This document shows positions 24,158-24,398 of a stretch of 64,000 nt of DNA, in pieces. Location of the stretch: positions 64,001 to 128,000 of IMG/VR virus record IMGVR_UViG_3300023174_000047; one strand, written 5' to 3'. The position numbers were made by a program, and so were the translations under genes. The notes below the pieces were generated by a model that saw only the letters and a program-made list of their open reading frames with translations, did not search any database and was not told where the DNA came from. Origin of the DNA: a virus. Its lineage: Duplodnaviria; Caudoviricetes. Each line of letters starts with the position of its first letter. Positions within the stretch are counted from its first letter, which is position 1.

Positions 24158-24398
24158 TAGCCTTTAGCCCCTTGCTTTAGTGGCAAGAAAATGCCTCTAA
24201 TTGCTGGGAAGTCTCAATGAGATAATCAGCAGCGAAGCGCTAATAATAGCGAACGTTCAACGACTACTGCACAGCAGGTAGGTATAAGCATACCGAAACG
24301 GGGCACACAATTTGTGATGATATAGTCTCATCTATACAGCGATGTATAGCAGCTCAAAAGAGCGCAACAAACGTAGCGATTTTGTTGGAAGAAAAATG
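24158..24398 (+). ncRNA. ORF-less group I intron, 241 nt, IA2-like
   Basis: P1 GGGUUA/UAGCCC with U24157.G24167 at the 5' splice site; P3 UGCCUC/GGGGCA; P4 UGCUG/CAGCA; P7 GACUA/UAGUC; P7.1 and P7.2 hairpins; P9 CUAUACA-GCGA-UGUAUAG; terminal G24398. Removal restores NSVYG-Y-MGNK in frame. Confidence 0.93.

Follow-up and report, generated by a model that had tools for sequence, protein, structure and literature searches.

How an essential DNA polymerase can be produced from a gene that is read as separate fragments, and how the interruptions of that gene came to lie side by side, are the questions raised by the locus described here. It lies in a window of 64,000 nucleotides, the whole stretch of DNA that we analysed, which corresponds to bases 64001-128000 of a 203,774-bp IMG/VR virus record (IMGVR_UViG_3300023174_000047) with a completeness estimate of 96%. 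The public runs containing this stretch are lake and freshwater metagenomes, no RNA run being among those listed for 23900-24700 or 24046-24931, and the source is a T4-like freshwater phage that has not been cultivated. The family-B polymerase it encodes is of T4 type but distant, with ~30% identity to cyanomyophage gp43/DNA polymerases; a megablast search of positions 21600-27000 against GenBank phages returned no match. Gene callers break this essential enzyme into fragments of 44 and 176 aa, and a single enzyme is restored once an intron, a split into genes 43A and 43B, and a split intein are recognised.

The 43A/43B split is located at the fingers region (23080-24108). Gene 43A (21622..23118, plus strand) encodes an N-terminal subunit of 498 aa with the exonuclease domain and the motif A region (Pfam DNA_pol_B_exo1 E 2.5e-18, DNA_pol_B E 5.9e-13). 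The first exon of 43B (24046..24157, plus strand) runs from MKDNKQ to KIFINSVYG, ends one base into a Tyr codon and contains motif B; it was delimited using ORF 24046..24180, a Pfam DNA_pol_B match at positions 135-167 and the alignment with intron-less homologues, and it is the 44-aa ORF at 24046-24180 that carries KIFINSVYG. Exon 2 (24399..24931, plus strand; ORF 24401..24931) resumes with (T)AC ATG GGC and continues through GDTD, followed by the N-half of a split intein (Pfam Intein_splicing E 6.4e-9). Just 5' of the 43B ATG at 24046 lies a sigma-70-like promoter match (TTGATA-16-TATATT, 24009..24036, plus strand, scan score 10/12), which was the top-scoring match of a scan that overall did not rise above chance and is a lead only. 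[quoted passage not shown] Drawing on an Rfam match, the predicted fold, covariation within a family and a junction defined by homology, we consider it very probable that 24158-24398 is a functional ORF-less group I intron of subgroup IA in gene 43B of the split family-B polymerase.

The junction can be placed by comparison with polymerases that lack the interruption. Conceptual excision of 24158-24398 joins 24157 to 24399 and gives KIFINSVYG-Y-MGNKNAPLGDDD (...KIFINSVYG-Y-MGNKNAPLGDDDIASSITLTGQ...), the predicted ligated exons being GTGTACGGGTAC|ATGGGC (T24157-A24399), that is, ...GTGTACGGGT-ACATGGGC... As intron-less references we used 18 related polymerase loci (L002-L019, 47-82% identity), in none of which Rfam detected a group I match. 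All 18 align uninterrupted across the predicted junction, and the two closest, L002 and L019, match exactly over it (KIFINSVYGYMGNKNAPLGDDD; ...INSVYGYMGNKNAPLGDDD...). The joining of T|AC into Tyr to give NSVYGYMGNK, as had been predicted, is what the intron-less homologues encode (exactly so in L002 and L019), and a near-identical metagenomic contig reads AGC GTT TAT GGT TAT ATG (SVYGYM) at the intron site. Likewise, the stop that had been proposed for the unspliced frame at 24178-80 is present as a TAA, which ends ORF 24046..24180. Shifting the boundaries by one base yields GFM or a broken frame, and the boundaries are exact to the nucleotide because group I rules require U to precede the 5' site and G to precede the 3' site.

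A covariance-model search, which the first-pass annotation had proposed as a check, was positive: the region matches Rfam RF00028 (Intron_gpI) with 84.9 bits and an E-value of 3.5e-20, the gathering threshold being 50 bits. No other RNA family matches in the window, and no second group I match occurs in the 203,774-bp genome. The core on which membership turns was found: helices P3-P9, P3 and P7 forming a pseudoknot, and the joining strands J6/7 and J8/7, which do not vary among the relatives. These observations bear on whether the 241 nt could instead be an untranslated spacer between two polymerase cistrons, such that the 44-aa peptide and a downstream subunit assemble without splicing. The polymerase has already been split once without splicing, into 43A and 43B, and an ATG is available at 24401; against this stand the covariance-model E-value, an exon that ends in the middle of a Tyr codon and the exact restoration of motif B, and a 44-aa fragment ending in ...YGLAFSPLL would break the conserved KxxxNSxYG...GN helix. 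We therefore regard a spacer as barely credible and return to the intron. The Rfam alignment spans 24081-24349 rather than 24158-24398, since the model sets P1 on an exon hairpin at 24085-24106, so that the genuine P1 and P2 appear as an 'insertion', and ends at P9. The exon hairpin (TTGCGCGAT-AAAA-TAGCGCAA) is not conserved in L135 and L138 and most likely arose by chance, and judging from the comparative data the true P1 and 3' end are those drawn initially.

All core helices of the earlier drawing, re-derived from the sequence, pair as written. P1 (24154..24170) is formed by GGGTTA (24154-59) and TAGCCC (24165-70), the latter serving as internal guide, and the U.G wobble that had been noted at the splice site is U24157.G24167, which marks the 5' splice site and is shared by 6/7 introns at the same site; a terminator-like match at 24154-24170 is simply P1. 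P2 (CTTGC/GCAAG, 24171-75/24183-87) follows, and P3 (TGCCTC/GGGGCA, 24192-97/24300-05) encloses P4 to P6, the 5' strand of P7, P7.1 and P7.2. Within it, P4 occupies 24202-07/24226-31, P5 is a helix of 4-5 bp with a triloop (24211-15/24219-23), and P6 (GC/GU) is extended by P6a (24238-42/24247-51). P7, the guanosine-binding helix, is the pseudoknot GACUA/UAGUC (24262-66/24323-27); it is accompanied by P7.1 (CTGC-ACA-GCAG, 24267-77) and P7.2 (GGTAT-AAGC-ATACC, 24281-94), and P8 (CACA-ATT-TGTG, 24306-16) lies inside it. The 3' part holds P9 with a GCGA loop of the GNRA type (24332-49), P9.1 (24352-63) and P9.2 (24365-87) with the conserved loop UAGCGA, and the element ends at the terminal G24398, in line with the ...AAUG end of 7/7 same-site introns. 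The minimum free energy structure (RNAfold, 24150-24405) contains every drawn helix except P7, a pseudoknot and as such beyond what RNAfold can draw. The folding-energy z-score against shuffles is only -1.73 over the same interval, so that folding energy alone is weak evidence for an intron.

P7.1 and P7.2, on which the initial subgroup call was based, are present between P7 and P3' and covary, which places the element in subgroup IA. The narrower assignment to IA2 would follow from its relatedness to the 43B intron of Aeromonas phage 25, whose record carries the label 'group IA2'. We take the element to resemble the IA2 introns of T4 td/nrdB/nrdD and Twort orf142 in residing in a phage gene for a DNA-metabolism protein and in having P7.1 and P7.2, and presumably also in sharing the J6/7-P7 core GUUCAACGACUA and the J8/7-P7' strand GAUAUAGUC. 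The introns of T4 exceed it in size and have, or formerly had, an endonuclease ORF inside them. To call the element very small was an overstatement, since its 241 nt are unexceptional among relatives of about 235-260 nt; smaller natural group I introns exist, such as the Azoarcus tRNA-Ile intron of ~205 nt. In blastn searches the intron core aligned at 70% over 202 nt with Enterococcus phage EF1 (EF1/EF5 group), at 75% over 98 nt with Bacillus phages PBS1/AR9 and at 82% over 83 nt with phiKZ-like Pseudomonas phages; these are partial core alignments to introns in other host genes (e.g. the RNA polymerase beta' gene of AR9), none occupying the insertion site of the window intron.

Searching IMG/VR with the core pattern GTTCAACGACTA-N(15-45)-GAAACGG, we identified >114 loci, 13 of which align over most of the window intron at 67-75% identity. 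In the resulting 14-sequence alignment, RNAalifold found 46 pairs, 32 with compensatory changes, and recovered P3, P4, P5, P6, P6a, P7.2, P8, P9 and P9.2; the window copy keeps all 73 family-invariant columns. Related introns occupy the identical nucleotide in six other metagenomic phages, giving seven same-site introns with the window. Among these seven, compensatory pairs were counted by a script from the window coordinates: 34 of the 71 hand-drawn pairs changed on both sides, and 91.8% of cells are canonical. Compensatory change affects 7/7 pairs of P9.2, 4/4 of P7.1 and 4/5 of P7.2, while P4, P6 and P7 are invariant; over the two sets of relatives it is also seen in P3, P5, P6a, P8 and P9. 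The P7 strands GACUA/UAGUC do not vary in either set of relatives (14 + 7) and match the Rfam consensus GACUA...UAUAGUC. P1 covaries with the Gly codon of the exon, which is GGG opposite a guide of GCCC in the window, L135 and L142, and GGA opposite GUCC in L138, L141 and L124. Such a compact family (~240 nt) with many natural compensatory variants could provide a small IA ribozyme for structural or engineering work.

According to established group I chemistry, the intron RNA within the 43B transcript would fold into P1-P9.2, and exogenous guanosine bound in P7 would attack after U24157, wobble-paired to G24167. The freed exon would then attack after G24398, joining T|AC and restoring motif B as KIFINSVYG-Y-MGNK; a transcript that failed to splice would be translated only as far as the stop at 24178-80. 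A decayed intron that no longer self-splices, leaving the polymerase non-functional or dependent on a splicing factor of host or phage, strikes us as very unlikely. Its P10 is weak, P5 and P8 are very short, and the case for splicing is built on sequence; decay is hard to reconcile with helices that are all intact and vary by compensatory rather than disruptive changes, with every column invariant among 14 family members being kept, with the essential nature of the polymerase, and with the recovery of the same intron allele in three independent studies. As to P10, no convincing pairing with the first exon 2 bases was found, the existing pairing not being conserved among relatives. A candidate pairing GCC of the P1 loop (24160-62) with GGC (24404-06) was discarded, since this GGC lies 5 nt inside exon 2 and L135 and other relatives do not conserve the pairing. 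The P9.2 loop (24372-24380) reads UA(A/G)CGA and shows little or no variation among the 14 family members, on a stem that changes completely; this conservation suggests a tertiary contact, although no partner of the loop was found.

Having settled on a functional intron as the preferred reading, we turn to its surroundings. Motif B of family-B polymerases is the site of many related introns. Those of L124 and L065 sit at the same nucleotide as in the window (YG|T-AT, then FGNK), those of L133 and L029 lie 9 nt upstream (NS|T-TG, then YGA), and that of Aeromonas phage 25 lies 3 nt downstream (YGA|T-TG, then GNN). The three insertion sites thus fall within 12 nt of motif B, each directly behind a U that is the first base of its codon, which suggests from sequence position that introns of this family have a hot spot in motif B even in T4-like polymerases that differ greatly. 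The related introns at L133:2358-2613, L029:1930-2186 and L134:5095-5441(-) represent the sites NS|x, YG|x and YGA|L.

The second element of the locus is an ORF of 293 aa on the minus strand (23104..23985), a putative homing endonuclease that is free-standing and lies antisense between 43A and 43B. Its profile matches fall below the respective cut-offs (TIGR01453 grpIintron_endo, E 7e-6, 26.2 bits against a cut-off of 56; Pfam LEM-3_GIY-YIG, E 0.0085, 16.5 bits against 27). Five homologues conserve EVYAYLDPR...PVYIGRG...R42, H46, E81/E87 and N106. In Foldseek searches, an AlphaFold model (pLDDT 72) matched the PD-T4-3 nuclease with E 0.02 and probability 1.0, and the UvrC GIY-YIG domain weakly (TMt 0.49). 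Taken together, the motifs and the model point, if weakly, to a GIY-YIG-like nuclease. A profile search with the five homologues against PDB sequences returned nothing meaningful, and BLASTP against the endonuclease of Aeromonas phage 25 found no similarity. The homologues form four clusters with 59-40% identity, and every one of them is antisense in polB, separating the N-part of a related polymerase from its C-part; beside other introns of the family no homologue was detected, except for one weak tblastn match in L057. Immediately 5' of the nuclease start, on the minus strand, we observed the T4 late-promoter-like sequence CATAAATA.

What is new in our analysis is the co-occurrence of the intron with this antisense GIY-YIG-like ORF. 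In each of the five nuclease ORF lineages (40-59% identity) the intron is present wherever the contig extends to the site, and of the 18 intron-less loci none has the nuclease ORF, just as none of the loci without the ORF has the intron (0/18 in both cases). Rfam Intron_gpI scores L135 with 86.9 bits and L138 with 87.4 bits, nhmmer with the family profile finds L135-L142 at E-values of 1e-45 to 2e-55, and the intron position is identical in L135-L142 (GG(G/A) T|AC ATG GGC or T|AT TTT GG). Such perfect co-occurrence could also arise without joint movement, if the carriers form a single clade by common descent. The introns of L124 and L065 occur at the same site in split 43A/43B genes with no adjoining endonuclease ORF, so the intron can persist without a nuclease of the window type. 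By analogy with what has been proposed for phage 44RR relative to phage 25, both loci may be remnants after loss of the nuclease. Their 43A/43B spacers measure 4 nt in L065 (2093-2102, TGA-acat-ATG) and ~230 nt in L124 (2592-2822), and resemble the 'intercistronic untranslated sequence' of phage 44RR.

Further information on joint movement comes from polymorphism among freshwater samples. We compared contigs from four independent freshwater runs over 22800-26200. One contig from another study (X2) has the intron with 0 differences and a further one (X3) with 5, whereas a 46-kb contig (X6), whose flanks are about 98% identical to the window (1/280 nt differ upstream of 23079 and 31/1800 nt downstream of 24401), has neither the nuclease gene nor the intron. 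In place of 23080-24108 it has 45 nt, which makes for an in-frame, unsplit polymerase without a nuclease gene, and in place of 24145-24400 it has AGCGTTTATGGTTAT, which encodes SVYGY without an intron; the intein and its ORF are retained. Relative to this unsplit type of allele, the window has, in place of 15 codons, 12 codons closed by a stop, then the antisense nuclease gene, then 21 codons behind a new ATG. Between the two elements, 10/51 nt of the exon stretch differ (~20%), as opposed to 32/2080 in the flanks (Fisher p 2e-8); the six differences nearest to the intron are all synonymous, and the diverged block stops within 2 nt of the 3' splice site. Given this shared divergence and these block ends, the nuclease gene, the exon stretch and the intron appear to have been imported or lost as one block. 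We read the pattern as that expected from endonuclease-driven gene conversion with co-conversion of the flanking exon. Near-isogenic genomes with and without the nuclease-intron block occur in public lake metagenomes and show its boundaries at nucleotide resolution, and the pair of elements is available in five diverged versions.

Two further contigs were noted in these samples. One from X2 joins 24152 to 24419 via TGGTGCTTTAGGCAATAAAGTCTTC and encodes (Y)GALGNKVF, its anchor side comprising only 24 nt; it may be a more distant intron-less allele, possibly of another phage, in a sample that also holds the intron allele. A short contig from X3, of higher depth (27.6), matches 24224-24266 (P6-P7) and lacks one base each at 24244 and 24247, within the loop of P6a; it probably derives from a related intron of another phage in the same sample.

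From these observations we lean, with modest confidence, towards spread of the intron by collaborative, or trans, homing. The intron would not move by itself but as part of a 1.3-kb block that also comprises exon 1 (112 nt) and the antisense nuclease gene. The substrates of the nuclease would be unsplit polymerase alleles without the intron, repair templated by the donor would copy the whole block, and the carrier would be protected because the intron interrupts the nuclease target. A possible but clearly less probable account is that the intron splices and has no functional link to the nuclease, the two being independent selfish insertions with a shared clade history; the nuclease would then target its own 43A/43B junction, and the intron would have been inherited vertically or moved once by another enzyme. 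The same-site introns of L124 and L065 fit such independence, as does the restriction of the nuclease family to this one position in polB, which site-specific self-homing would equally explain. Independence accounts less readily for the intron's presence in every nuclease lineage and the lack of either element from the 18 loci and the near-identical contig, or for an exon stretch that diverges along with both elements in a block ending at the 3' splice site, and collaborative homing has a tested precedent in phage 25 (PMC2988022).

In Aeromonas phage 25, gene 43 consists of 43A, the endonuclease gene seg43(25) and 43B, which is interrupted by a group IA2 intron lacking an ORF (Petrov, Ratnayaka and Karam, 2010; reviewed in PMC2988022), and its record accordingly lists 43A, a 'homing endonuclease' and a 43B 'split by group IA2 intron'. 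Since this arrangement was described in 2010, our findings leave current concepts unchanged. The window shares with phage 25 a T4-like family-B polymerase split at the fingers into 43A and 43B, with a free-standing GIY-YIG-type endonuclease gene, putative in the window, between the two. In the phage 25 intron, which Rfam scores with 64.2 bits, the 3' half (P7', P9, P9.2 with a UAACGA loop, and the ...GAAUAACAUG end) matches the profile of the window family (nhmmer E 7e-15). This intron is longer (347 nt, with boundaries set in this analysis, versus 241 nt) and is inserted at YGA-L(T|TG)-GN, 3 nt downstream of YG-Y(T|AC)-MGN in the window. The endonuclease gene of phage 25 is on the same strand as the polymerase, whereas that of the window is antisense and unrelated in sequence, and the window polymerase has in addition a split intein in motif C, with a Vsr-like ORF.

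Collaborative homing has also been described for the DNA polymerase intron of the T7-like phage PhiI with a free-standing endonuclease, and for the psbA intron of S-PM2 with F-CphI (PMC3984707; F-CphI, PMC6083498). In both systems the intron interrupts the endonuclease target (PMC3984707), and collaborative or trans homing has likewise been described for phage 25 and T4 mobE/nrdB (PMC2988022, PMC3984707). The host genes of PhiI and S-PM2 are a family-A polymerase and psbA, the endonuclease families differ from that of the window, and cleavage there was shown by experiment, that by the window nuclease being a prediction. A further difference is that the nuclease gene of the window runs antisense and is what divides its host gene in two. 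The chances seem to us about even that the locus is a composite cassette of ~1.3 kb, by which a single homing event would turn an unsplit, intron-less polymerase into a two-subunit, intron-containing one, with the nuclease encoded antisense outside the ribozyme and the intron conferring immunity. Motif B, where the sites NS|x, YG|x and YGA|L all fall inside 12 nt, would then be a hot spot, with several such cassettes converging on it in T4-like phages that are distantly related. Cooperation between ORF-less introns and free-standing nucleases can be studied at this locus in natural material.

The third interruption of the polymerase, at motif C, is a naturally split intein (24566-26078; GDTD|SVVADAV...stop and ...ILVHN|SVYLSI). 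Its C-half (...ILVHN) precedes the C-terminal polymerase part (SVYLSI...) in 25947..26909 (plus strand; Pfam Intein_splicing positions 116-155). Intein-free relatives read GDTDSVYL at this point, and L135 and L138 are without an intein (GDTDSVYL and GDTDSIYM, respectively). Between the intein halves lies a free-standing ORF of 332 aa (24956..25954, plus strand) with a Vsr/DUF559-like C-terminus (phrog_22677 E 9e-66; Pfam MTES_1575 E 2e-5, below cut-off), and the halves with this ORF follow the 'fractured genes' layout of PMC2677866. A homologue of the 332-aa ORF (33% identity) is found in L133, 3' of that locus's own intron.
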